The translations under genes were made by a program, and so were the position numbers. This document shows, piece by piece, positions 10,585-44,761 of a stretch of 52,629 nt of DNA. The notes below the pieces were generated by a model. The model was not told where the DNA came from, did not search any database, and worked only from the letters and a program-made list of their open reading frames with translations. The stretch comes from an uncultured Bacillota bacterium (GTDB lineage Bacteria > Bacillota_I > Bacilli_A > RF39 > UBA660), in assembly GCA_900318075.1 (NCBI GenBank), contig ONJI01000011.1, positions 1 to 52,629 on the forward strand, given 5' to 3'. How positions within the stretch are numbered: position 1 is the first letter of the stretch; each line of letters opens with the position of its first letter.

Positions 10585-10629
10585 CAATTTTACTAATTTA
10601 AAAACATTATTTTGCATTTTTTACTTATT

Positions 10630-11232
10630 TTAGTTTAATAAAATATCTACTTTGATGTTTTTATCTATTAATTCTTTAAATTTTACCCCATCTTCTTTGT
10701 TTCCAACAATGGAACCGTAGTGAATTGGGGTTACTATTTTAGGTTTTATAATGTTTGTAAGACGTGCGGCTTCTTGATAATCCATGGTATATGTCCCACC
10801 TATTGGAATAAATAGATAGTCACATTTTACGTGTTGGCTTTCTTCTATTATATCAGTATCACCCATTATGTAGTATGTTTGATTTAAATAAACAAGATAT
10901 CCTACCCATCCATATTGTTTTTTATGAAATGGTTTATTTGTGTTATAGGCTGGAATGGTTTTGAATTTTATACTATTTATTTCATATTCATTATTTGGTT
11001 TTACTATAAATAAATTATAATTATTTAACTTTCTTATTATTTCTTCATCGTTTGGTGCGATGATTACGGTTTTATCATTTATAATTTTATCTATGCTTTC
11101 TTTATCAAAATGATCATAGTGAGGGTGCGTAATAAATATGGCTTTAGCATCATGCACATCATCTTTTATTTTAAATGGATCAAAGTAGATATTATTTATT
11201 TTAATACTACTTTGAGTATTTATAGTTATCAT
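10630..11232 (-). CDS. MBL-fold metallo-hydrolase
   Basis: 200 aa with the HxHxDH motif (ITHPHYDHF). Confidence 0.8.
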   Translation of the reverse strand: MITINTQSSIKINNIYFDPFKIKDDVHDAKAIFITHPHYDHFDKESIDKIINDKTVIIAPNDEEIIRKLNNYNLFIVKPNNEYEINSIKFKTIPAYNTNKPFHKKQYGWVGYLVYLNQTYYIMGDTDIIEESQHVKCDYLFIPIGGTYTMDYQEAARLTNIIKPKIVTPIHYGSIVGNKEDGVKFKELIDKNIKVDILLN

Positions 11233-20321: not shown

Positions 20322-21245
20322 CTATTTTAGTTTATAAGTAGTCGTAAATATTCTATCGTCAGAGCAGTATTCTAAAACATATTTATCTTCTTTTCTGCAT
20401 ATAATTACACCAACGCTTTTATCATGAAAAACTTTCTTTATTTTTTTATCTACATAATTCATATATTTTTTAACTTGCCCTATATATTCTGCTTTCATTA
20501 CACTTACTTTTATCTCTATAATAATAAAACAATTAAATTCATAATTAAATAGAAGAAAATCTATATAGTGATAATTACTACCTATTTTTATTTTTACTTC
20601 ATGGTCTATATATGAAAATCCTTGACCTAATTCTTATAAAAAATTATCCATATCTTCTAATATAAACTGATGTAATGTATACTCACTTATATTATCATTT
20701 ACTTTATTTTTGGTTTTAATTATTATTGGATTTTTAATTAAGGTATTTACTTTAGGTTCTTCTAGTTCTTCTTTATAACCTATTCTTTCATATTCTTTTG
20801 ATTTAATTCTTTCTCTTAAATCTCTAACTGACAAATTATGACTTTCACAAATATAAATGTAGTATTTTATTTCATTTATATCATCTAGTTTTAACAGCTC
20901 TACATAATTACTCCATGTCAATTGGTGCGACATTGTCGCACCTTTTTGAATTATCAAATAAAACTTTCGCATTCTTTTTAACGACGACACATTATATCCC
21001 TTACCAAGTTCTTTTGTTAACTTTTCCGAATATTCCTTTATTAATTTATTTCCGTATTTAGCACGTGCTTCCCCACCTTGAGCTACTACTAATAATCTTC
21101 CTACTTCAAAATATGAATTTAAATCACTTTTATTTTTGGAATAATCCTTAACCTTTTTATATGCTTCGTTTTTTATTAATGTTGTCTTTATCTCGTTATA
21201 GTAGTTGATAGAAATCATCTCCTCATTTATTAATATACTAGACAA
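20322..21245 (-). pseudogene. YhcG-type (DUF1016) PD-(D/E)XK nuclease with an in-frame TAA
   Basis: The 203-aa N-terminal ORF ends ...EDMDNFL-TAA (20634-20636). The same frame continues ELGQGFSYIDHEVKIKIGSNYHYIDFLLFNYEFNCFIIIEIKVS...TTTYKLK to TAG at 20322-20324. The total of 924 nt is 308 codons. The D...E-x-K nuclease core lies after the stop. Confidence 0.7.
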
Positions 21246-29715: not shown

Positions 29716-30561
29716 TTATACTTTCAATTTTACTAATTCTTGTTCAGTTAAACCTGTTATCTCTATAATGTCTTTTATCTTTATTCCTTTAGCAAGCATC
29801 TTTTTAGCCATAGCTATTTTATTTTGAGTTATACCTTTTTCAATACCTTTTTTAAGACCTGTATTATATCTTTGATTGGCCCATTTCTCGGTTTCGTCTT
29901 CTATAACAAGTTCTTTGGCTACGTCTGGATCTAAGTTTAAGTATTTTACTTTATTTGATATTTCTACCATTATTTCATCACCTTTACTTATTTTATCCAT
30001 CTCTTCATAAGTTTGGGCCGCGAGTAACATCATAAATGGATCTTCTTTCTTTTCTTCTTTATTGTACCACTTATCATCAAAATAATCCATATTGATATGT
30101 ACTATCTCAAATATATCATTATATATTTTATTATTTGTATTATTTTCGGTTATATAGAATTTTATTATCTTTTTGTCTTTTATATCATAATCTAGATATT
30201 TTTTTAAATTCCATGTCAAATTTAACTGCACGTGTTTTACTATATTTATATAACTTTCTTTTTGTTTTAAATTACTGCTTATTAGTTTACAAAAATATAA
30301 TAGATTTCTATTAAATACTTCTTCTTTGTAATTATTATTTACTTCGACATTTATTATTCCTTCTTCTGTATATACTATCAAATCTAAAAACATTTTTCTT
30401 TCTTTTTTATTTTCTATATTCATTTCATTATTATTTACAATTAAGACTTTATCTACTTTTATGTTTAACGATACCTCTAACAATTTTTTTATTCTCTCTT
30501 CTGTTATAAAGACATTTTTAAATATGATATCGTTTCTTAAAAATTGGGGTTTTAACTTCAT
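29716..30561 (-). CDS. Rpn-family recombination-promoting nuclease / putative transposase (PD-(D/E)XK)
   Basis: 281 aa. The N-terminus DIIFKNVF...FLDLIVYTEEGIINVEVN carries a D...E-x-N/K-like core. The C-terminal helical tail is shared with the remnant at 2-519. Confidence 0.7.
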   Translation of the reverse strand: MKLKPQFLRNDIIFKNVFITEERIKKLLEVSLNIKVDKVLIVNNNEMNIENKKERKMFLDLIVYTEEGIINVEVNNNYKEEVFNRNLLYFCKLISSNLKQKESYINIVKHVQLNLTWNLKKYLDYDIKDKKIIKFYITENNTNNKIYNDIFEIVHINMDYFDDKWYNKEEKKEDPFMMLLAAQTYEEMDKISKGDEIMVEISNKVKYLNLDPDVAKELVIEDETEKWANQRYNTGLKKGIEKGITQNKIAMAKKMLAKGIKIKDIIEITGLTEQELVKLKV

Positions 30562-35689: not shown

Positions 35690-35774
35690 TGGTGCGGGCG
35701 AAGGGACTTGAACCCCCATGCCGCAAGGCGCTAGATCCTAAGTCTAGTGCGTCTACCAATTTCGCCACGCCCGC
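35690..35774 (-). tRNA. tRNA-Leu (anticodon UAG), CCA encoded
   Basis: Reverse complement GCGGGCGTGGCGAAATTGGTAGACGCACTAGACTTAGGATCTAG...(long variable arm)...GGGGTTCAAGTCCCTTCGCCCGCACCA. The anticodon loop is CTTAGGA. Confidence 0.9.
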
Positions 35775-35781
35775 AATTAAG

Positions 35782-35858
35782 TGGTGGACCCTGATGGACT
35801 CGAACCATCGACCGCCCGGTTATGAGCCGGATGCTCTAACCAACTGAGCTAAGGGTCC
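35782..35858 (-). tRNA. tRNA with CAU anticodon (Ile2-lysidine type or elongator Met), CCA encoded
   Basis: Reverse complement GGACCCTTAGCTCAGTTGGTTAGAGCATCCGGCTCATAACCGGGCGGTCGATGGTTCGAGTCCATCAGGGTCCACCA. The body closely resembles E. coli ileX-type tRNA as I recall it. Confidence 0.85.
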
Positions 35859-35947: not shown

Positions 35948-36364
35948 TTAATTTTTATTTATCATATTAAGTAAATTTATTTTAAATTTGTCTTTATCTT
36001 CATGTTCTTTTGAAACCATTACGCCTTTATAGGCTACTAGTTCTGATTTGTGGCCTTCTTTTAATATGTCTTCTGGTGATAGTGTTACTAAAGTGATGTT
36101 ATTTGTTCCTTCATTTACACTGTAGTGAAGTTTAACTTCGCCATGGACTTTAACAAATAATGCATCTGTTGGTAATTTTACTTCATAGTTTTTTATATTT
36201 CCTTCAGTGCTTACGACAGTACCTAAAAACTCCCCAGATTTTAATTTAGGGTAATATTCGAAGTAAAGTTTTTTGAAAGCAAGCATGTTGTATTTTTTTA
36301 GCGCACTTTCCAACTTTTTAAATTCATTTTCATTTTCATATCCAAACATGTACTTTTCTTCCAT
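35948..36364 (-). CDS. Hypothetical protein (138 aa)
   Basis: Clean ORF. I recognise no motif. The RBS is weak (AAAGGA, 10 nt). Confidence 0.5.
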   Translation of the reverse strand: MEEKYMFGYENENEFKKLESALKKYNMLAFKKLYFEYYPKLKSGEFLGTVVSTEGNIKNYEVKLPTDALFVKVHGEVKLHYSVNEGTNNITLVTLSPEDILKEGHKSELVAYKGVMVSKEHEDKDKFKINLLNMINKN

Positions 36365-36486: not shown

Positions 36487-36512
36487 AAAACTAGATTATA
36501 TAATCTAGTTTT
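36487..36512. terminator. Perfect 26-nt palindrome / bidirectional terminator
   Basis: AAAACTAGATTAT|ATAATCTAGTTTT. It contains the stop codon of the 294-aa gene. Confidence 0.6.
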
Positions 36513-37389
36513 GTGCTACTTTTGTGTAACCATTTTTAATCAACGATTCATCATCACAATTAGCTTCTTTAGTATCTACTTTGCTGTTTTCTAAAGTTTT
36601 TGTTCTGTAGCGATAATAAGTTACAGTTTTATAAACTGGCTCATCATAATAAATGGTTGTTTTTTTAATGCAGTTTGTTGGTTCTTCATATGTCCCTGGA
36701 TTATCATATCTATTGCCACAAACATAATAGACTTTTGAGCCACTATAGATGTATTTATTTGCAGGTCTTGTTGTAATTTCATCCTTGGTTACTGTCTTAG
36801 TTCCTGTTTTTACTTTTTTAGATGATGTTTCGACTTGAATGTTACCATTTTCTTCTACTTTTTTGGTACTCCAGCTTGACCACTGTCCATAGGTCCAAGC
36901 TTCATCAAGATTTTTTACGAATGTGCACCTTGCGGTGCTGGTACTGGGAAATTGTGTTCCATCTAATCCCATATGTAAGATTATATAATCTGTTTTATCA
37001 GCACATGTTAAATTTACTTTCATAGTGTATTCGTCTTCTTTTCTTTTAACTAGTACATATGATTTTTTTGTGCTGCAAGAAATTCCGTTATTGTCAGTAA
37101 GTTTTACTATCATTTTTTGGTCTAACATTTCTTTTAATGTCATTTTAGATTCTTCGTCAGTTTTCTTAGGCAATCTACTATCTGTATAATAACCACTAGC
37201 AGCAGTAGCCATAGCAATTAAATTACTGTTAAAATTACTATTTTTTGTAGTTCCTAGTTTTTTGTCAATATAATTTGTAACAAATCCCTTTGTAGGGAAA
37301 AGTATCATTAGAATAAATAGTGCAACCACTATTAGAACAATCTTAGCAAATACTGATCCAAATGGACGATTATTTCTTTCTGTGTACAT
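36505..37389 (-). CDS. Membrane-anchored extracytoplasmic protein, unknown function
   Basis: 294 aa with an N-terminal TM helix (IVLIVVALFILMILF), 6 Cys, and the motifs WTYGQWSSWS and TYYRYRTKT. Confidence 0.6.
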   Translation of the reverse strand: MYTERNNRPFGSVFAKIVLIVVALFILMILFPTKGFVTNYIDKKLGTTKNSNFNSNLIAMATAASGYYTDSRLPKKTDEESKMTLKEMLDQKMIVKLTDNNGISCSTKKSYVLVKRKEDEYTMKVNLTCADKTDYIILHMGLDGTQFPSTSTARCTFVKNLDEAWTYGQWSSWSTKKVEENGNIQVETSSKKVKTGTKTVTKDEITTRPANKYIYSGSKVYYVCGNRYDNPGTYEEPTNCIKKTTIYYDEPVYKTVTYYRYRTKTLENSKVDTKEANCDDESLIKNGYTKVAQN

Positions 37390-37434: not shown

Positions 37435-37707
37435 TTATTTTGTCAATTTTATTTTTACTATTGTGCAGCCTCTATTAGAATAAGAGCTTTTAAAGTCGGT
37501 GACATTTTTATTACGTGCTAATGTTTTCACAGTTGTTTCTCTTATAATGCCCGCTCCAATGCCATGGATAATTACAATAATTTCGTTGCCCATTTTAATA
37601 TTATCTTCGATAAAATCATTGATTGCTACTCTAGCTGTATCCCGATCATAGCCATGAAGATCTATTTTAGGAAAACTATCTGGAAAGATTACTTCATTTA
37701 TTTCCAT
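37435..37707 (-). CDS. Smr (small MutS-related) domain protein
   Basis: 90 aa with IDLHGYDRDTA and IIHGIGAGIIR, the Smr LDLHG/HGxG signatures. Its start overlaps the upstream gene by 14 nt. Confidence 0.8.
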   Translation of the reverse strand: MEINEVIFPDSFPKIDLHGYDRDTARVAINDFIEDNIKMGNEIIVIIHGIGAGIIRETTVKTLARNKNVTDFKSSYSNRGCTIVKIKLTK

Positions 37708-40198
37708 TTAACTCGGCTCTGGCAGCTATTAGTGTTACTTTTGGAATTTGATTTAATTTACAAATAAGGTAATCTATTCCTATTTTTTCAAAAATTTTGA
37801 TATTTTTTTCATTTTCTCCATGTGGGCCAGAAACTCCTAATATAATATTTGGGTTTGATTTATATGCCAGTTTACTAGTAACTGTCATGAATTTTCCTAA
37901 ACCTTCTTCATCGATAATTGTAAATGGATCATGCAAAACATTATTGTAATACCACTTTAAATCGTCATCATATATGCCGTATGTATATTTTGTAAGTTTA
38001 TATGAGTCAATTATTAAAAAGTCTACTTCTTTAGCAATATTGCTAGCTAAAGCAACATTTCTTGGGGTTTCAATCATCGTTCCTAACTTACAATCTATAT
38101 TGTATCTTCTCAATGTTTGTTTTGTAATATTTATTATTTCCTTTAAATATTTTAGCTCTTCGATATCATTTATAACTGGCACTACAATTCCAGGCTTTAT
38201 GTCATATCCTTTTCTTTTGACATTTATAGCTGCTTTTAATATAGCTTCGGTTTCCATCTTGACAATTTCTGGATATGTAACCGCAAATGGGCTACCATGC
38301 AGATCAATAATTGAATTAAAGTTTTGAAGTGATTTAATTTTTGCTTTTATATCATCTATTTCAGCTTTCATGTTTTTGGAAAGTTCATATATTTCTTCGT
38401 CACTTTTTGGCAGAAAACTTCTTAATGGAGTATCTAAAAGTTTAATTGCCACCTGTTTACCATTTAAGTTTTTAAATACTTCTTCAAATTTTATTGTAAG
38501 TATTGGTAATAGCTCTTTTAGTGCTCTATTTATTTCTTCTATATTTTTCGATAATATTAATTTTTTTATGATAAATATTTGGGCAGATTCAAAAATTAGA
38601 TCTTCTACTCTACATATGCCCATAGTATCAATACCAAAATCAATAGTCTTTTTTGAGGGTTCAATTACGCTAGCAATGTTTATTTGTTTTATATCTTTAG
38701 CCCATGACAGTAAAGTTATAAGTTTGCTGTCAATTTTTGGTTTATTTATTTCGATTTGTCCTTCATATATGTATTTGTCATCTATAGATAAATAACTTCC
38801 TTCTTCATATATTTTGCCATTAATTTTCACTATTTTGTTTTTTTCATCAATTACAGTATTTTTGCATTCAGTAATATAACATTTTCCATAATCGTTTTTG
38901 AAAATATCGATGTCTGACTTATTTACAGTAATAATTCCTTTTATTTTTTTTGCATATTCGGCATCTTCTGGGAGAATCTGTTTTTTTACTAAAATGATAT
39001 CTTCTTTTTGTGATTCTCTTTTAGCACTTTCGATATCAAAATATATTGGCCCTGAAAATGCACCTTTATTATATGTTTTACCGCTTGTAAGTGGGGTTAT
39101 ATTCTTTTTGTTTAAACTGCTGTAAGTTAATATATCTAGGTCATCAGGGTTTATTTTCATTATAGCTTCCTCTTTGGTTATAAGGCCCTCTTCGGCCATT
39201 GAAACGGCAATATTAATACTGGCTATTTCACTTTTTTTTGCTTTCTTAGCTTCTATAATATATAGTTTACTATTTTCAACTATAAAATCTATTTGGACTA
39301 TATCTTTATAGTGATATTCTAATAATTTAGAATATTCATCTAGGTTTTTATAAATATCTATATTTGTATCTATCAACATCTCAATAGGCTTAAAATCTAT
39401 TTCTTGCATTTGCCTTAAAAAAATTCCTGATAATTTATCTTCTCCAGTTATATTATCTCTCGAATAAACGGTGCCTTGTAACGAGGTATTATTAATATTT
39501 CCAAACACCATTTGCTGGACAATTATAGCTAGATCATTTATCTCTTTATTTTGTTTATCCCAGGTTTTAAATATATATTTAATAGTTTCTAATAACTGAC
39601 ATATAGGATCTTTGGGAAAATTTTCGCCAGTCAATTTTTTATATATTTTTTTAGATTCTGCAGCGATTTGAAAAAGATCTTCGGCAGTTAGTTCTAAATC
39701 ATTTTTTACTTTTCTTTTTTCTTTATATTTATCTATAAGTAATTTAAATGGGGCTTCGTCTTTGCTTTTCACAGTAGTTGCGTATGTCATTATGAGTTTG
39801 CGATATATATCGTATATGAATTTTGCTGAATTTTCATCTATTGCCATATTAGCGGCAATATTATCATTTAAACCGATATTTAAAATAGCTTTTGGCTCAT
39901 TTTTAATTTCTATAGTTGGACTTAAACGGACGGCTAAAAATAATGGGTTTTCTTTATCCCCTACTTTTTTTCCGCATTTTGTCTCAATGATTTTTATATA
40001 TTCTAGTATTTGATGTTCGATTTCCCTGGATAAGCGTTCATTATTTTCATGGTAATTTTTATAAGCTTCTTTAGTTATAATAAAACCATGTGGCACTGGG
40101 AGATTTTTGCTAGTTAATGTTACTAACCTTGTGCCTTTTAAACCTAATAAATCACTATCAGCGTTTTCTTCATCGAATGAATAAATGTATTTTTCCAT
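37694..40198 (-). CDS. Pyruvate,phosphate dikinase-like protein with substituted catalytic motifs (probable pseudoenzyme)
   Basis: 834 aa and colinear with PPDK over its full length (FDEENA..LLGLKG, ILNIGLND, LITKEEAIMKI, ILVKKQILPED, AVTYPEI, LGTMIETPR, GIDYLIC). The phospho-His motif, the GTNDLTQ motif and the CGE motif are all replaced. Confidence 0.8.
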   Translation of the reverse strand: MEKYIYSFDEENADSDLLGLKGTRLVTLTSKNLPVPHGFIITKEAYKNYHENNERLSREIEHQILEYIKIIETKCGKKVGDKENPLFLAVRLSPTIEIKNEPKAILNIGLNDNIAANMAIDENSAKFIYDIYRKLIMTYATTVKSKDEAPFKLLIDKYKEKRKVKNDLELTAEDLFQIAAESKKIYKKLTGENFPKDPICQLLETIKYIFKTWDKQNKEINDLAIIVQQMVFGNINNTSLQGTVYSRDNITGEDKLSGIFLRQMQEIDFKPIEMLIDTNIDIYKNLDEYSKLLEYHYKDIVQIDFIVENSKLYIIEAKKAKKSEIASINIAVSMAEEGLITKEEAIMKINPDDLDILTYSSLNKKNITPLTSGKTYNKGAFSGPIYFDIESAKRESQKEDIILVKKQILPEDAEYAKKIKGIITVNKSDIDIFKNDYGKCYITECKNTVIDEKNKIVKINGKIYEEGSYLSIDDKYIYEGQIEINKPKIDSKLITLLSWAKDIKQINIASVIEPSKKTIDFGIDTMGICRVEDLIFESAQIFIIKKLILSKNIEEINRALKELLPILTIKFEEVFKNLNGKQVAIKLLDTPLRSFLPKSDEEIYELSKNMKAEIDDIKAKIKSLQNFNSIIDLHGSPFAVTYPEIVKMETEAILKAAINVKRKGYDIKPGIVVPVINDIEELKYLKEIINITKQTLRRYNIDCKLGTMIETPRNVALASNIAKEVDFLIIDSYKLTKYTYGIYDDDLKWYYNNVLHDPFTIIDEEGLGKFMTVTSKLAYKSNPNIILGVSGPHGENEKNIKIFEKIGIDYLICKLNQIPKVTLIAARAELNGNK

Positions 40199-40215
40199 TT
40201 TATTCTCCTTTTTAT

Positions 40216-41064
40216 CTACTTTCTTGCTCTTGGATGGGCTTTTAGGTATACTTCTCTTAATCTTTCGTTAGAAATGTGGGTATATATCTGGGTTGTTGAA
40301 AGATTTTCGTGTCCAAGTAAATCACCTACACTTTTTAAATCGGCTCCATCGTTTAATAAGTGAGTAGCATATGTGTGTCTTAGGGTATGGGGAGTCACAT
40401 GCACGTCAAGTCTAGCTTTTTTTGAATTATCATCGACGATTTTTCTGACTATTCTTTCGTTTAATTTATTACCGTGCTTATTCGTAAATAAATACTCGTG
40501 CGTTTCTTTTTCAAGATATTTATTAAGCAAATTTTCACATTTTGTTCCATAATATACATATCTTTCTTTATTGCCTTTTCCTAATATTAGGATTTTTCTT
40601 TCTTTAAAATTAATATCTTTTATTTTGATATTTGTAAGCTCGCTTACTCGGCAACCGGATGAATATAACATCTCTAGTATTAAGGCATCTCTTAAACCGT
40701 ATTTGTTATTAATGTCTGGCGCTTCTAACAATCTTTCTAAGTCGTCATAGTTTAGGTAATTTGGTAATGTTTTTTCTACTTTTGGATTGCTTATTAAGCT
40801 CATTGGATTATCATCAATGATGTTTTCGCTTTCTAAATATTTGAAATAACTTTTTAGGCTACTTACTTTTCTAGATATTGTGCGAGAAGTGTATTTGTTT
40901 TCATATAGTTTTTTTAAATAGTTTCTGATTAGGTCAATAGTTATTTTATCTTTTCCTACAAATTCATAAAAGTTAGTTAGGTCAATTTTATAATTTTTGA
41001 CTGTATGTTCTGAAAAATTTTTTTGATATTTTAAATAGTTTAAAAATTTATCTATATTTTTCAT
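40216..41064 (-). CDS. xerC: Tyrosine recombinase XerC/XerD family
   Basis: Core-binding plus catalytic domain: R (SGCRVSEL), HTLRHTYATHLL, GHENLSTTQIYTHI. ATG 41064 lies behind AGGTGG; the ORF track used GTG 41073. Confidence 0.85.
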   Translation of the reverse strand: MKNIDKFLNYLKYQKNFSEHTVKNYKIDLTNFYEFVGKDKITIDLIRNYLKKLYENKYTSRTISRKVSSLKSYFKYLESENIIDDNPMSLISNPKVEKTLPNYLNYDDLERLLEAPDINNKYGLRDALILEMLYSSGCRVSELTNIKIKDINFKERKILILGKGNKERYVYYGTKCENLLNKYLEKETHEYLFTNKHGNKLNERIVRKIVDDNSKKARLDVHVTPHTLRHTYATHLLNDGADLKSVGDLLGHENLSTTQIYTHISNERLREVYLKAHPRARK

Positions 41065-41147
41065 GTGTCCCACCTAATTTAATTATAGCACGTATGGTGT
41101 TCTTAGTAAATTAATGAATTTTAATATAGTTTTAGCTTTTTTGCATT

Positions 41148-41223: not shown

Positions 41224-41859
41224 TTATATATTAGTTTTTTTGTATTTTTTTGCTTTGTTTTCTTTTTTTAGGTGTTTTTCATATTCATTTATCCCGTAAG
41301 ATATATCTCTAAATACTCTATAATTACTTATTTCACGAGTAATATCTTGATAATACTCCAATATATCATTTTCATTTACTTCAGTATCAATAAAATAGTT
41401 ATATGTAGCAATGAGGAGAACTAGTTTTGAGCTAATATAATTTTTCAGTTGTAGATAGCTCCATAGTTTTTTATGTCTTCTTTGAATATTTATCAATTTA
41501 TACGATAGTTCTATGACATTTTTACTTCTTTTTGGTTCTTCTTTTCCTGAATTAATTGCCTCTTCGCGGTATGTACTTTCTTCAGCTATTTCTATATTAT
41601 CAGCATAGGCAACATCAATATATTTTGTTTCTCTATTTACTCTATATTCGATATATAGGTGTCCAAAATCATATCCTATATTCATAAGTTCTGATAGGAA
41701 TTCGCTTTCACTATTATAGTTTGTTGTCATTCTATCTATAGTAGCTAATGGAAGTTTACTCATTACTTTACCATTATAGGCAATTTCAATAGTTTTTGTA
41801 TTTCCAAACATATCTATGCTGACTAATGAATATCTGTTAGCTCTATTATCTTTATTCAT
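41224..41859 (-). CDS. Hypothetical protein, tandem paralog B (211 aa)
   Basis: Shares blocks with the upstream gene: LATIDRMTTNYNSESEFLSEL / LTQLDALTTSCNSMEELLEL; LYIEYRVN..KYIDVAYADN / CYIEYRNN..KKLDIAFNDN; NYRVFRDISYGINEYE / QYKIFRDITFEIHRYE. Confidence 0.65.
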   Translation of the reverse strand: MNKDNRANRYSLVSIDMFGNTKTIEIAYNGKVMSKLPLATIDRMTTNYNSESEFLSELMNIGYDFGHLYIEYRVNRETKYIDVAYADNIEIAEESTYREEAINSGKEEPKRSKNVIELSYKLINIQRRHKKLWSYLQLKNYISSKLVLLIATYNYFIDTEVNENDILEYYQDITREISNYRVFRDISYGINEYEKHLKKENKAKKYKKTNI

Positions 41860-41917: not shown

Positions 41918-42631
41918 CTAAAAATCATCTGGATTGAAAAGTCTTGGCTGCTCTATTTTTCGTGGTAAAATTATTTTTACTTTTGGCTTTTCGGCTCTTG
42001 CGTTTATTTCAGAAATTTGTGATTTTGTTTTTTCTTCGTATCGATGAATTTCGAATGTAATATCTCTGAAAATTTTATACTGACTTAGTTTACCAATTAT
42101 AAGGTCTAGGTAGGCGTCTGCTTCATTTATATTATAGTAGTCACTACTAGTATAAGCATCATACATGCATAGATAATAAGATAAATCGCTATCAATAACG
42201 TTACAACTATTAAGATAATTGTAAAGTGGGTCTTTTTCTCTATGAATTTTGATTAGACTCATAGCTAACTGTTTAACTTGATAGGTTCCCTTAATATTAT
42301 ACTTTCCTTCATAAGATCTAGATACTTCTTTAATAATTTCATTATCGTTAAAAGCTATATCTAACTTTTTAATATTGCCGTTATTTCTATATTCAATATA
42401 ACAATATCCATCTATAAATTCGTCTTTAGAATTTTTCTTTGGAACATTAATTAAACTTATGAGTTCTAGCAATTCTTCCATGCTGTTACAACTTGTTGTT
42501 AAGGCATCTAGCTGCGTTAGAGCAAATTTTTCTCTTAATTTACCATTATCGCATTTAATTCTAAGTGTACTTTCAAGTCCGTCTAAGGCTCTATGTTTTA
42601 ATGAATATATGCCTTTTTTTATGTCTTTCAT
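41918..42631 (-). CDS. Hypothetical protein, tandem paralog A (237 aa)
   Basis: ATG 42631 lies behind AGAGGTG plus 6 nt. It is a paralog of 41224-41859. I recognise no family. Confidence 0.65.
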   Translation of the reverse strand: MKDIKKGIYSLKHRALDGLESTLRIKCDNGKLREKFALTQLDALTTSCNSMEELLELISLINVPKKNSKDEFIDGYCYIEYRNNGNIKKLDIAFNDNEIIKEVSRSYEGKYNIKGTYQVKQLAMSLIKIHREKDPLYNYLNSCNVIDSDLSYYLCMYDAYTSSDYYNINEADAYLDLIIGKLSQYKIFRDITFEIHRYEEKTKSQISEINARAEKPKVKIILPRKIEQPRLFNPDDF

Positions 42632-42654
42632 GAATAACACCTCTTTTGTTTAGT

Positions 42655-42715: not shown

Positions 42716-44761
42716 CTACTTTGTAAAGTCGCAGCTACTACATTTAATTTTATCTTTTTTTTCGGTAAGCATGCTTCCGCATTCTGGACATTTTTCACCA
42801 GTTGGTTTATCCCAATATGCAGTTTTACATTTCGGATAATTATTACATCCATAGAAGATTTTGCCTTTTCTTGTTTTCTTTTCGATTATTTTACCGTCAC
42901 AGTTTGGACAGTCACATATTTCTTTTTCTTCTTTAGGCTCTTGTTTTATGTATTTACACTCTGGGAAATTACTGCATGCTGTAAATGAACCGTATTTTCC
43001 TTTTCTAATAACTAGTGGATGACCACAATTAGGGCAGTTTTCGCCAGTTTCTAAAGCTTCTTTTTTAGGCATTTTATCGAATGCGTCTTTAACTGATGGC
43101 TCAAACTGTTTATAAAATTCTTCTAACACTTTATACCATATTTCTTTGCCTTCAGCTATTTTATCTAAATCTGTTTCCATATCGGCTGTATATTTAACAT
43201 TAATTATGTGGCTAAAGAACTCTTGAAGCTTATCTGTTACTTCAAAGCCAATTTCCGTTGGAACAAATTTTCTTTCTACTAAATTTACATATCCTCTTTT
43301 TTTGATGTTATCAATTATAGTCGCATATGTAGATGGTCTACCTATTCCAAGTTCATCCATTTCTTTAATTAGTTTAGCTTCAGTATATCTAGCTGGGGGT
43401 TCAGTAAAGTGTTGCTCTTTAGAGATATCGTTTGAAACAATTATTTTAGAATTATATGCATCAAATGGTGGAAGTATGGCATCTTTAGTATCTTCATAAT
43501 CGCTAAATACTTTTAAGTAACCATCAAAGATGATAATTTGTCCAGTTGCTTTAAACTGATAATCGTTATTATTAAGAATTACGGTTGTTCCTTCTACTTT
43601 AGCTGGGGCCATAATGCTGGCTAAAGCTCTATAGTATATCATTCTATATAATTTATATTCATCATCTGATAAATACTGTTTGATACTTTCTGGAGTTCTT
43701 GTTATACTTGTAGGTCTAATAGCTTCGTGGGCATCTTGAACATTTTCAGTTTTTTTACTTACTTTTACAGGTCCTGTATATTCTTTACCGTATTTTGTTT
43801 CAATAAATTTATAAGCAGATGATATAAATTCATTAGATAATCTAATTGAATCGGTACGCATATATGTAATTAAACCAGCGGTTTCATTTTCTAAATCGAT
43901 ACCTTCATATAATTTTTGCGCAACTTGCATAGTTTTTCTTGATGAAAATCTTAATTTATTTGATGCTGTTTGCTGTAAAGTACTAGTTGTGAATGGTGGT
44001 TTTGATGATCTATTTTTTAATTTTTTATCTACACTTTCTATTTCAAATGCTTTAGATAACTTATTTAATATTTCGTCTGCATCAATTTCTGTTTTTATTT
44101 CTATTTTCTTATGTTTGTATTGAAACAGATCGGCAGTAAAGTCTTTAAAATCGGCAGTTATCGTCCAGTATTCTTCTGGATTAAAGGCATTTATTTCTCT
44201 TTCTTTATCAACTATTAGTTTCAAAGCAACGCTTTGAACTCTACCGGCACTACTACCATCTGTTTTTGATTGAATTAGTTTAGAAAGTCTAAAACCGATA
44301 ATTCTATCTAATATTCTTCTAGTTTCTTGACTGTTTACTAGATCTTTATCGATTTTTCTTTCATCTTTGATGGCCTTTAAAATAGTGTCTTTAGTTATTT
44401 CGTTAAATACTACTCTACTATAGTTTTCATCTTTTAGACCTAAGGCATCATATAGGTGCCAAGCAATAGCTTCTCCTTCTCTATCCAAGTCGGTCGCAAG
44501 ATAAACTTTATCTGCTTTTTTAGCTTCTTTTTTAAGCTCATCGATAACGGATTTTTTACCTTTTATAGTTTTATAGTCAGGTTTAAAATGATCTTCTATA
44601 TCGACACCTAATCCATATTTACCTTTGGTAGACAAATCTCTAATGTGTCCTTTACTTGATGATACTATATAATCACTACCTAAATATTTTCCGATTGATT
44701 TTACTTTTGTTGGTGACTCTACGATAACTAGTTTTTTACCCAAGGTAATCAACTCCTTCAC
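42716..44761 (-). CDS. topA: DNA topoisomerase I
   Basis: 681 aa. TOPRIM (LVIVESPTK), the catalytic Tyr region (ITYMRTDS) and C-terminal CxxC zinc ribbons. Confidence 0.95.
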   Translation of the reverse strand: MKELITLGKKLVIVESPTKVKSIGKYLGSDYIVSSSKGHIRDLSTKGKYGLGVDIEDHFKPDYKTIKGKKSVIDELKKEAKKADKVYLATDLDREGEAIAWHLYDALGLKDENYSRVVFNEITKDTILKAIKDERKIDKDLVNSQETRRILDRIIGFRLSKLIQSKTDGSSAGRVQSVALKLIVDKEREINAFNPEEYWTITADFKDFTADLFQYKHKKIEIKTEIDADEILNKLSKAFEIESVDKKLKNRSSKPPFTTSTLQQTASNKLRFSSRKTMQVAQKLYEGIDLENETAGLITYMRTDSIRLSNEFISSAYKFIETKYGKEYTGPVKVSKKTENVQDAHEAIRPTSITRTPESIKQYLSDDEYKLYRMIYYRALASIMAPAKVEGTTVILNNNDYQFKATGQIIIFDGYLKVFSDYEDTKDAILPPFDAYNSKIIVSNDISKEQHFTEPPARYTEAKLIKEMDELGIGRPSTYATIIDNIKKRGYVNLVERKFVPTEIGFEVTDKLQEFFSHIINVKYTADMETDLDKIAEGKEIWYKVLEEFYKQFEPSVKDAFDKMPKKEALETGENCPNCGHPLVIRKGKYGSFTACSNFPECKYIKQEPKEEKEICDCPNCDGKIIEKKTRKGKIFYGCNNYPKCKTAYWDKPTGEKCPECGSMLTEKKDKIKCSSCDFTK

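Follow-up and report, generated by a model that had tools for sequence, protein, structure and literature searches.

Pyruvate, phosphate dikinase (PPDK, EC 2.7.9.1) is a textbook multi-domain 'swivelling' enzyme. Its structures (1DIK/1KBL from C. symbiosum; 5JVJ from Flaveria) consist of an ATP-grasp domain (NBD), a swivelling central domain and a TIM-barrel PEP domain. For PepA, an E. coli aminopeptidase, catalysis is dispensable for the role that it plays in Xer recombination. PepA moonlights there, serving XerCD recombination at cer/psi as an architectural accessory factor (PMC2655662, PMC5357621). In B. subtilis, the PEPut domain of PykA, a PEP-utiliser homolog with a TSH motif, links pyruvate kinase to the control of DNA replication (PMC9009071, PMC10143966). 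No description of a PPDK-derived pseudoenzyme or of a non-catalytic PPDK was found in our literature searches.

Here we analyse a PPDK-like gene located directly after xerC in the window, that is, the whole stretch of 52,629 nucleotides under study. The host lineage consists of uncultured, spore-forming, Erysipelotrichaceae-like Bacilli of about 29% GC from the guts of ruminants and other animals. The gene and its neighbours are as follows.

40216 to 41073, minus strand: xerC, tyrosine recombinase (TIGR02224, 328 bits; Phage_integrase and SAM_1 domains), 17 nt upstream of the PPDK-like gene
37694 to 40198, minus strand: PPDK-like gene, 834 aa, positional ortholog of ppdK from profile, structure and synteny, probable pseudoenzyme
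37694 to 37707, minus strand: 14-nt overlap ATGGAAATAAATGA, with the Smr start codon within the final codons of the PPDK-like gene, which ends in TGA
37435 to 37707, minus strand: stand-alone Smr-domain protein, 90 aa, DLHG and HGxG motifs kept (Pfam Smr, 52.5 bits)
36505 to 37389, minus strand: final gene of the cluster, encoding a 294-aa protein with a single hydrophobic segment at its N terminus
36487 to 36512, no strand: perfect AT-rich palindrome of 26 nt that extends across the TAG stop of the 294-aa gene

A predicted PPDK fold with replaced catalytic residues

The window protein is homologous to PPDK over its full length, as the preliminary description had proposed. Residues 1-873 of the C. 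symbiosum enzyme (1dik_A) align with residues 1-832 of the query (E=1e-152), and TIGR01828 covers 3-830 of the 834 aa with 624.9 bits, a score beneath the equivalog cut-off of 843.45. The three domains (PPDK_N, PEP-utilizers and PEP-utilizers_C) are colinear, the central one with a Pfam match of only 16.8 bits, under the cut-off of 23.1. The PPDK fold is predicted confidently by AlphaFold2 (pLDDT 85.4, pTM 0.77); dips in pLDDT are confined to the former catalytic loops and reach 58 at the former phospho-His loop. Compared with PPDK structures by Foldseek, the model gives a TMq of 0.76-0.81 (0.81 for 5jvj_A). The window protein is 32-33% identical to PPDK of C. symbiosum and 45-49% identical to its closest active orthologs, and the degenerate proteins are 35-55 aa shorter through loop deletions.

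Thirteen of the 20 mapped catalytic or ligand residues are replaced in the window protein, including H455, the P-loop, D321/E323/Q335/R337, R617, N768/D769 and C831. By alignment we verified the five motif replacements reported previously, and with them the substitution of all three catalytic centres.

39887 to 39928, minus strand (aa 91-104): former ATP P-loop, RS..SMPGMMDT replaced by RLSPTIEIKNEPKA
38885 to 38923, minus strand (aa 426-438): former phospho-His loop, NKSDIDIFKNDYG in place of GGMTSHAAVVARGMG, 3 aa shorter and lacking His
aa 527-536: GLCRTEHMFF replaced by GICRVEDLIF
37988 to 38011, minus strand (aa 730-737): former Mg2+/substrate motif, FGTNDLTQ replaced by IDSYKLTK
37814 to 37837, minus strand (aa 788-795): former Cys proton-donor motif, GICGEHGG replaced by GVSGPHGE

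At the ATP-grasp nucleotide/Mg site, the loop with G101 and M103 is replaced, although K22 and R92 are kept, and the Mg/phosphate residues, absent from the earlier list, are changed as well (D321Q, E323D, Q335E, R337K). The phospho-carrier His455 and T453 are lost with the replacement of GGMTSH in the shortened loop, for which the preliminary description had given a slightly too wide span (nt 38879-38938). No His occurs anywhere in aa 297-633 of the window protein, which excludes a shifted catalytic His. The PEP/pyruvate site carries R617K, N768Y, D769K and C831S, while R561 and E745 are kept, as are E563, D620 and R748. The reported loss of the catalytic His and Cys stands. Because 13 of the 20 catalytic or ligand residues are replaced, we infer that the window protein is unable to perform the PPDK reaction.

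It is conceivable that the TIM barrel, rather than being part of an inert scaffold, has been neofunctionalised into a sensor or enzyme that binds an anionic metabolite (PEP, pyruvate) or carries out new chemistry. R561 and R617 are conservatively replaced by K (the window protein itself retains R561), E563, D620, E745 and R748 are largely kept among the degenerate proteins, and the K or R found at the Mg2+ ligand D769 in six of the seven main-clade members could substitute for the metal charge. An intermediate from a sister lineage, P0272, with His455 and the PEP domain beside a dead ATP site, would moreover resemble PTS Enzyme I. We nevertheless judge this explanation unlikely. The N768 and C831 positions and the entire His loop vary freely among the degenerate members, which is unexpected for a new active site, and constraint on the PEP domain is among the weakest in the protein (dN/dS 0.14-0.26). 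In addition, 21 residues are invariant in the seven aligned main-clade proteins yet unlike the canonical enzyme; most of these changes are conservative, six being R to K, and they are scattered and outline no new site.

Orthology, recurrence and selection

The gene order around canonical ppdK is topA, a gene of unknown function, xerC, ppdK, in some cases pfkB, then smr. L006, L007 and L027 have the stretch from topA to ppdK, and L009 has xerC-ppdK; in all four, a fully canonical ppdK (20/20 sites) lies directly after xerC, and TopA of L006 and L007 is 88-90% identical to that of the window. Since the canonical gene occupies the identical position in close relatives, the window gene is not a paralog, as had been proposed, but the positional ortholog of ppdK, degenerated in situ. 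In a neighbour-joining tree, the degenerate clade is nested beside the canonical P0003 on a long stem of 0.46 substitutions per site.

A second degenerate lineage comprises L029 and L030, whose TopA proteins are 96% identical. All three sites are dead in L029, whereas in its close sister L030 only the ATP site is dead: its protein, the intermediate P0272, retains His455 together with the full set of 10 PEP-domain residues. The His/PEP loss in L029 was hence independent of that in the main clade, and the ORF was again retained after it. Metagenomic representatives also include further full-length PPDK homologs, unrelated to one another, in which the catalytic sites are degraded.

The degenerate form is intact in every lineage (about 10 examined), with full-length ORFs in L001, L003-L005, L011-L014, L020 and L028-L030; decay was looked for in these relatives and no interrupted ORF was seen. 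From the observed non-synonymous divergence, 13-62 stop-creating changes are expected per pairwise comparison, and none was observed (P from 2e-6 to 7e-28). For L001 and L014, the pair with the least saturation (dS 0.81), dN/dS is 0.108 (CI 0.084-0.137), compared with 0.048 for TopA, 0.041 for xerC and 0.085 for a canonical ppdK pair; because most pairs have a dS close to 1 or higher, most dN/dS values are imprecise. The degenerate form evolves 4-11 times faster than TopA, indicating that constraint outside the NBD2 helical subdomain is weak. The window's own sub-lineage (window versus L011) is the fastest, with a dN/dS of 0.24 overall and 0.47 in aa 210-330.

NBD2, and not the former active-site loops, is now where selection is tightest.

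39572 to 39880, minus strand (aa 107-209): NBD2 helical subdomain with its hinges, the most constrained part of the protein

NBD2 proper has been defined as aa 112-196 (PMC5371819). For the subdomain with its hinges, three of the four degenerate pairs give a dN/dS of 0.026-0.058 and the fourth, the saturated window-L011 pair, gives 0.11; the canonical pair gives 0.13. Pairwise identity within the main clade is 0.77 in NBD2 versus 0.39-0.47 elsewhere in the protein, and NBD2 is the best conserved region in every degenerate lineage (0.63-0.77 versus 0.34-0.47). Taken with the ORFs intact in all relatives and the overall dN/dS of the L001-L014 pair, these values bear out the earlier suggestion that the open frame reflects selection on a non-catalytic role.

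Alternatively, the gene might be a functionless relic, drifting in sequence, whose frame is kept open only by translation running from xerC to the overlapping Smr start (coupling or polarity). The Smr overlap, conserved to the nucleotide, and the xerC gap of 8-17 nt would fit such a relic. So would the rapid evolution relative to TopA, the shrinkage by loop deletions and the disappearance of the terminator and promoter that lay ancestrally between ppdK and smr, as they still do in L007. Drift of this kind, however, predicts a dN/dS near 1 apart from stops, against the 0.108 seen overall and, in NBD2, values as low as that of TopA. ORFs that are dead or half-dead are also intact in L029 and L030 despite the absence of a downstream Smr gene, no whole domain has been removed by a large in-frame deletion, and the fold is still confidently predicted. 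A relic is thus improbable. Full length, a predicted three-domain fold and purifying selection across species, in an enzyme homolog that lacks its catalytic residues, set it apart from a decaying pseudogene, and we read the protein as a pseudoenzyme.

Gene neighbourhood and proposed function

The spacings within the cluster were confirmed as first described: 17 nt after xerC, the 14-nt overlap with Smr, and 45 nt between the Smr gene and the 294-aa gene. Among the neighbours, xerC alone is invariant across canonical and degenerate lineages, with a gap to the PPDK gene of 1-17 nt in 10 loci and of 84-86 nt in L009 and L027. The 17-nt spacing in the window suggests co-transcription of the PPDK-like gene. 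The 14-nt overlap is common to the six main-clade loci compared, with one base different in L014, and measures 11 nt in L028. Between ppdK and smr of the canonical sister L007 lie a terminator and a promoter; hence the overlap is derived in the main degenerate clade, in which the PPDK-like gene is predicted to be translationally coupled to the Smr gene.

Smr, a putative nuclease, has its DLHG and HGxG motifs conserved in an alignment of eight orthologs, and its gene has a dN/dS of 0.078. The 294-aa protein has no family match in Pfam, NCBIfam or PADLOC; its counterparts in relatives are 73-80% identical, and L029 and L030 lack it. The palindrome at the end of its gene had been described as a terminator. 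It is perfect and is a possible weak terminator; the terminator scan did not flag it, as it has too few G-C pairs.

The order xerC, PPDK-like gene, Smr and a gene of about 294 aa occurs in all main-clade loci and in L028. Canonical ppdK already lies in the xerC/Smr neighbourhood, so that this linkage is older than the catalytic loss. Of the conserved linkage foreseen in the preliminary description, the part concerning xerC holds, whereas Smr is missing from L029 and L030 and is therefore not an obligatory partner. The degenerate lineages are all close relatives with generally conserved synteny, and a shared neighbourhood hence says little about partnership.

We consider it likely that the gene encodes a conserved PPDK-derived pseudoenzyme, enzymatically dead, which binds through NBD2 in a role older than the catalytic loss. 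The ancestral ppdK has stayed at its original position directly after xerC, while its ATP-grasp site, phospho-carrier His and PEP/pyruvate site were lost. The dead protein, whose function is probably non-enzymatic, may act as a scaffold or by binding a partner or a ligand through NBD2. The active enzyme probably had this role beforehand as a second, moonlighting function, which would have preserved the protein once PPDK chemistry became dispensable.

A bolder reading, drawn by analogy and in our view doubtful, would assign to the NBD2 helical bundle a structural role in DNA or RNA transactions, as an architectural or regulatory accessory factor of XerC, comparable to PepA for XerCD, or as an adaptor of the stand-alone Smr nuclease. 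The dead orthologs would then be the moonlighting function exposed by stepwise loss (ATP, then His and PEP) at least twice independently, and, together with the unrelated degraded homologs among metagenomic representatives, 'dead PPDK' would be a recurrent, undescribed class of bacterial pseudoenzyme. Least probable of all is the original proposal of a dedicated paralog in a novel system with XerC, the Smr nuclease and a membrane protein, such as a DNA-processing or defence module: the shared gene order and the derived coupling to Smr speak for it, but the gene is an ortholog, active ppdK has a matching neighbourhood (xerC-ppdK-(pfkB)-smr), L029 and L030 keep xerC with neither Smr nor the 294-aa gene beside their dead or half-dead genes, no PADLOC-DB defence model matches the PPDK-like protein, Smr, XerC, the 294-aa protein or the two upstream paralogs, and the region belongs to the core chromosome (topA, xerC, herA, cysS, truB) and is no island.

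Significance and comparison with known systems

The sole ortholog at this locus, not a spare duplicate, has lost all three reaction centres and yet been kept by selection, and the intermediate stages in sister lineages are a natural experiment on the passage from a large enzyme to a pseudoenzyme. The case also points to the poorly understood NBD2 helical subdomain as having a function of its own. In MAG annotation, the dead genes are labelled 'pyruvate, phosphate dikinase'. Such labels would mislead the metabolic reconstruction of gut and rumen Bacilli; active and dead forms can be separated by a simple 20-site check.

The window protein has in common with PPDK the ATP-grasp NBD, the swivelling central domain and the TIM-barrel PEP domain, and its gene has the chromosomal position of the active ppdK of sister genomes. 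It differs from PPDK by the 13 replaced residues, the loop deletions, the sub-cut-off profile score and the constraint on NBD2. With PTS Enzyme I it shares the module of a His domain and a PEP-binding TIM barrel, and the intermediate P0272 (L030) resembles that state; however, the window protein lacks the His and PEP-site residues, and no HPr-like partner is encoded nearby. The PEPut domain of PykA provides a documented non-metabolic role in DNA transactions for the PEP-utiliser domain family in Firmicutes, but this role needs the TSH motif, which is deleted in the window protein, and the architecture differs. The likeness to PepA is purely one of analogy, between a metabolic enzyme tied to Xer recombination and a PPDK or PPDK-like gene that always lies immediately after xerC; PepA remains catalytically active, its gene does not lie beside xerC, and neither DNA binding nor XerC contact is predicted for the PPDK-like protein. 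Like pseudoenzymes in general, the window protein is devoid of catalytic residues, is under purifying selection across species and retains its fold, as predicted. Its non-catalytic role is a proposal, and, in contrast to pseudoenzymes in general, the dead form here is the ortholog itself and not a duplicated copy.

Cluster layout and chromosomal setting

The window has a G+C content of ~29% and carries nearly all of its genes on the minus strand. The PPDK-like gene stands in the following cluster, listed 5' to 3' on that strand:

42716-44761, minus strand, topA, first in the cluster
41918-42640, minus strand, ORF of unknown function, 240 aa, between topA and xerC
41224-41859, minus strand, ORF of unknown function, 211 aa, between topA and xerC
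40216-41073, minus strand, xerC
37694-40198, minus strand, PPDK-like ORF, 834 aa
37435-37707, minus strand, Smr-domain gene, 90 aa
36505-37389, minus strand, 294-aa protein with a single N-terminal hydrophobic segment
36487-36512, perfect 26-nt AT-rich palindrome (AAAACTAGATTATATAATCTAGTTTT) that includes the TAG stop of the 294-aa gene

The spacings reported in the preliminary description were exact: the PPDK-like gene begins 17 nt after xerC and overlaps the Smr gene by 14 nt (ATGGAAATAAATGA), and 45 nt then precede the 294-aa gene. The palindrome was missed by our terminator scan, its AT content being too high for it to be called; over the AT-rich window, the promoter/terminator scan returned 56 sites for 55 expected, that is, no excess. 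The remainder of the window is the ordinary core chromosome of a spore-former (phosphoketolase, lysS, thrS, dnaB/dnaI-like, RNase III, uvrA, SpoVAC/SpoVAD, a sigma factor, ftsK, pnp, truB, cysS, herA-like, rhomboid and femAB genes). We rejected a defence island, since the cluster has no PADLOC match and the genes of the window, including those for sporulation and housekeeping, are those of a core chromosome. Among the housekeeping genes lie a PD-(D/E)XK_2 'transposase-like' nuclease gene (29716-30561, minus strand) and a 203-aa ORF with DUF1016_N alone (20634-21245, minus strand), which could be what is left of mobile or nuclease elements.

The two ORFs between topA and xerC are tandem paralogs (33% identical, E=1e-23) without a match in Pfam or PADLOC; relatives carry one to four copies, which evolve fast (40-67% identity where TopA is at 93-95%). 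Directly after the palindrome and upstream of a tRNA-Met/tRNA-Leu pair (35690-35858), a 138-aa ORF (35948-36364, minus strand) is 93-96% identical across the clade, a conservation equal to that of TopA, and has no family match.

Loss of catalytic residues in an orthologous ppdK

The PPDK homology proposed earlier holds over the whole length: the ORF matches the equivalog model TIGR01828 from end to end, at 624.9 bits, below the cut-off of 843, and its residues 1-832 align to residues 1-873 of C. symbiosum PPDK (E=1e-152). All five motif replacements given in that description are correct. We mapped 20 catalytic or ligand positions (C. symbiosum numbering), of which seven are retained (K22, R92, R561, E563, D620, E745, R748) and 13 substituted (G101, M103, D321, E323, Q335, R337, T453, H455, R617, N768, D769, C831, E833); the His loop is in addition three residues shorter. 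A catalytic His or Cys present at a shifted position was looked for and rejected, since the stretch from aa 297 to 633 contains no His, which excludes a shifted one, and the Cys motif reads GVSGPHGE. Judged from these residues, the protein would be incapable of any of the three partial reactions of PPDK. The fold is predicted with confidence: the AlphaFold2 model, built on an alignment of 19 sequences, has a pLDDT of 85.4 and a pTM of 0.77, its weak spots are confined to the former catalytic loops, and Foldseek aligns it to PPDK structures with TMq values of 0.76-0.81. A new active site made of clade-specific invariant residues was rejected: there are just 21 such residues, scattered and for the most part conservative R-to-K changes.

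Database neighbours that lack all the motifs (hereafter 'dead') fall into seven 90%-identity clusters of 813-865 aa, namely the window's own and six others that are 45-59% identical to the window protein, while canonical PPDKs from 'Bacilli bacterium' MAGs (866-871 aa) are 44-48% identical to it. P0001, the 90%-cluster representative, differs from the window protein by one residue, I131T, inside the conserved NBD2 segment described below; the other six main-clade proteins aligned have T at this position. Public annotation labels the dead proteins 'pyruvate, phosphate dikinase'. In a scan of GTDB species representatives, the dead form was found in five species, all MAGs, from the rumen or the gut of sheep where a source is named; their labels are Bacilli, Firmicutes or Erysipelotrichaceae, save for one Muribaculaceae label that we take as a binning or labelling error.

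All dead-form contigs share the order topA, two to four small unknown ORFs, xerC, PPDK-like gene, overlapping Smr gene, ~294-aa gene and ~138-aa gene. Contigs with a canonical ppdK are arranged as follows:

Gene order around canonical ppdK
L006: topA-unk-xerC-ppdK
L007: topA-unk-xerC-ppdK-smr-293 aa
L009: xerC-ppdK-pfkB-smr
L027: topA-unk-xerC-ppdK-pfkB-smr

A more distant canonical PPDK, on contig L026, has a different chromosomal context. The window TopA is 93-96% identical to that of the other dead-form genomes and still 88-90% identical to that of L006 and L007. This shared gene frame, together with TopA identity, indicates that the window gene is ppdK itself, degenerated in place, and that its linkage to xerC and smr predates the degeneration. 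It is thus not a paralog, as had been proposed, and no second canonical ppdK lies within the 52.6-kb window. The suggestion that the undescribed gene combination forms a novel multi-gene system is likewise not supported, since the neighbourhood is ancestral, also surrounds active enzymes and matches no PADLOC model. At the equivalent position in L009, a 526-aa N_methyl protein has no detectable homology to the 294-aa protein.

In the window, TGA is a stop in 8 of 35 confident genes and TGG codes for Trp, which points to code 11, under which the large conserved genes are all intact; genetic code 4 was rejected on these grounds. The public gene calls for three proteins of the dead clade (P0002, P0025 and P0026; compare contigs L003 and L005) translate the TGA stop as Trp, which adds 6 aa to P0025 and P0026 and ~30 aa to P0002 (…NGNKWS…). 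Source pipelines evidently applied code 4 to these low-GC contigs.

At the junction with smr, the canonical locus L007 has a spacer (10605-10765) containing a hairpin-plus-T-run terminator (AAAAAGACTAA…TTAGTCTTTTT), a promoter-like TTGACC…TGgTACAAT element and a Shine-Dalgarno sequence for smr, while in L009 and L027 pfkB separates the two genes, and each of the three overlaps or abuts the next. The L007-type spacer is missing from the main dead clade, where Smr starts within the final five codons of the PPDK-like gene; the 14-nt overlap is identical in six lineages and one base different in L014. From these junctions, translational coupling of Smr would be an innovation of the main dead clade or else an older trait that this clade specifically kept. 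The Smr proteins retain their DLHG and HGxG motifs.

A second loss, and selection on the retained gene

A dead-clade profile run against 1.8 billion representatives recovered two further relatives, P0121 and P0122, and subsequent searches brought in P0269 and P0272. Within the dead clade, P0122 and P0269 make up a branch of greater divergence, and the neighbourhood of P0269 matches that of the clade, including an 11-nt Smr overlap. In P0272 (L030:6552-9101), the ATP-grasp site is dead (K22N, loop deleted, D321K, Q335K, R337K, T453A), while His455 and 10 of 10 PEP-domain residues are retained, with 74% PEP-domain identity to canonical enzymes, an Enzyme-I-like state. In P0121 (L029:8001-10457), 58-60% identical to P0272, all three centres are dead. 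These two genomes show PPDK degeneration at different stages in one locus. L029 and L030 share 96% TopA identity and pair as sisters in the TopA tree, outside the main dead clade, which indicates that the His/PEP-site loss in L029 is independent of that in the window's clade. The PPDK tree places the fast-evolving lineages on one stem, possibly by long-branch attraction; the ATP-site loss could be shared or parallel. In both L029 and L030 the PPDK-like gene follows xerC by 1-2 nt, and Smr and the 294-aa gene are absent downstream. Hence the anticipated linkage stands for xerC, kept in all dead lineages, and fails for Smr in these two; Smr coupling cannot be the reason why the dead protein is retained there, which weakens Smr as an obligatory partner.

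Catalytic residues are also missing from many full-length PPDK homologs (814-921 aa) among the best 150 50%-identity representatives: 9-15 of the 20 are absent in P0223, P0230, P0248, P0265, P0178, P0167, P0176, P0189, P0249 and P0258. Identity among these is mostly 24-32% (42% in the highest pair), and several lie nearest to canonical PPDKs, which suggests several independent 'dead PPDK' lineages in this set.

The PPDK-like ORF is intact in every copy examined, without stops or frameshifts. About 7% of random non-synonymous changes in its sequence would create a stop, so that 13-62 stop hits are predicted per pair from the observed divergence; none is present. Rates are NG86 pairwise estimates, limited by saturation of synonymous sites in most pairs, L001 and L014 being the least saturated (dS 0.81); trees are NJ rather than likelihood models, and all sequences come from uncultured organisms.

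Pairwise dN/dS
PPDK-like, L001 vs L014: 0.108 (bootstrap CI 0.084-0.137)
topA, L001 vs L014: 0.048
xerC, L001 vs L014: 0.041
smr, L001 vs L014: 0.078
canonical ppdK, L006 vs L007: 0.085

Together with the intact ORFs, the first value bears out the earlier argument for selection on a non-catalytic role. Between L029 and L030, dN/dS is 0.27 (CI 0.22-0.33) for the PPDK-like gene vs 0.03 for topA. Within the same genome pairs, the dN of the PPDK-like gene exceeds that of topA by a factor of 3.6-11, vs 1.6 for canonical ppdK, and a long stem (0.46 substitutions per site) leads to the dead clade, nested beside canonical P0003 in the NJ tree. The low dN/dS contradicts the explanation that the gene is a relic whose ORF is kept open by coupling, as do L029 and L030.

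Constraint is strongest at aa 107-209, the NBD2 helical subdomain with its hinges (NBD2 is defined as aa 112-196; PMC5371819). There, dN/dS is 0.026-0.058 in three of four dead pairs (0.11 in the saturated window-L011 pair), where the canonical pair gives 0.13; values for the central and PEP domains are 0.12-0.27. NBD2 is the most conserved segment in each dead lineage (identity 0.63-0.77 vs 0.34-0.47 elsewhere), while its conservation is unremarkable among canonical comparisons. Its pI is acidic (4.7-6.8) in 11 of 12 canonical proteins and basic (8.0-9.4) in six of seven dead ones. We set nucleic-acid binding aside, of which this shift would be a weak hint, because it amounts to few net charges and could stem from AT-driven Lys enrichment.

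A putative non-catalytic role

The data fit a pseudoenzyme whose fold, above all NBD2, is under selection. The retained copy is the ortholog itself rather than a spare one, and in sister lineages it has outlasted the loss of catalysis on at least two occasions; this is most economically explained if the PPDK of the group had acquired a second, non-catalytic role even before catalysis was lost, a role that would now carry the selection. A barrel with residual ligand sensing is possible, though we do not favour it, as the former site residues vary among members. Our full-text literature search found no description of a non-catalytic, pseudoenzyme or moonlighting PPDK. The sole invariant neighbour is xerC, and two known systems offer a likeness by analogy only: PepA, a metabolic enzyme that serves a DNA transaction as a Xer accessory factor (PMC2655662, PMC5357621), and the pyruvate kinase of B. 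subtilis, whose PEP-utiliser-like domain acts in replication control (PMC9009071).
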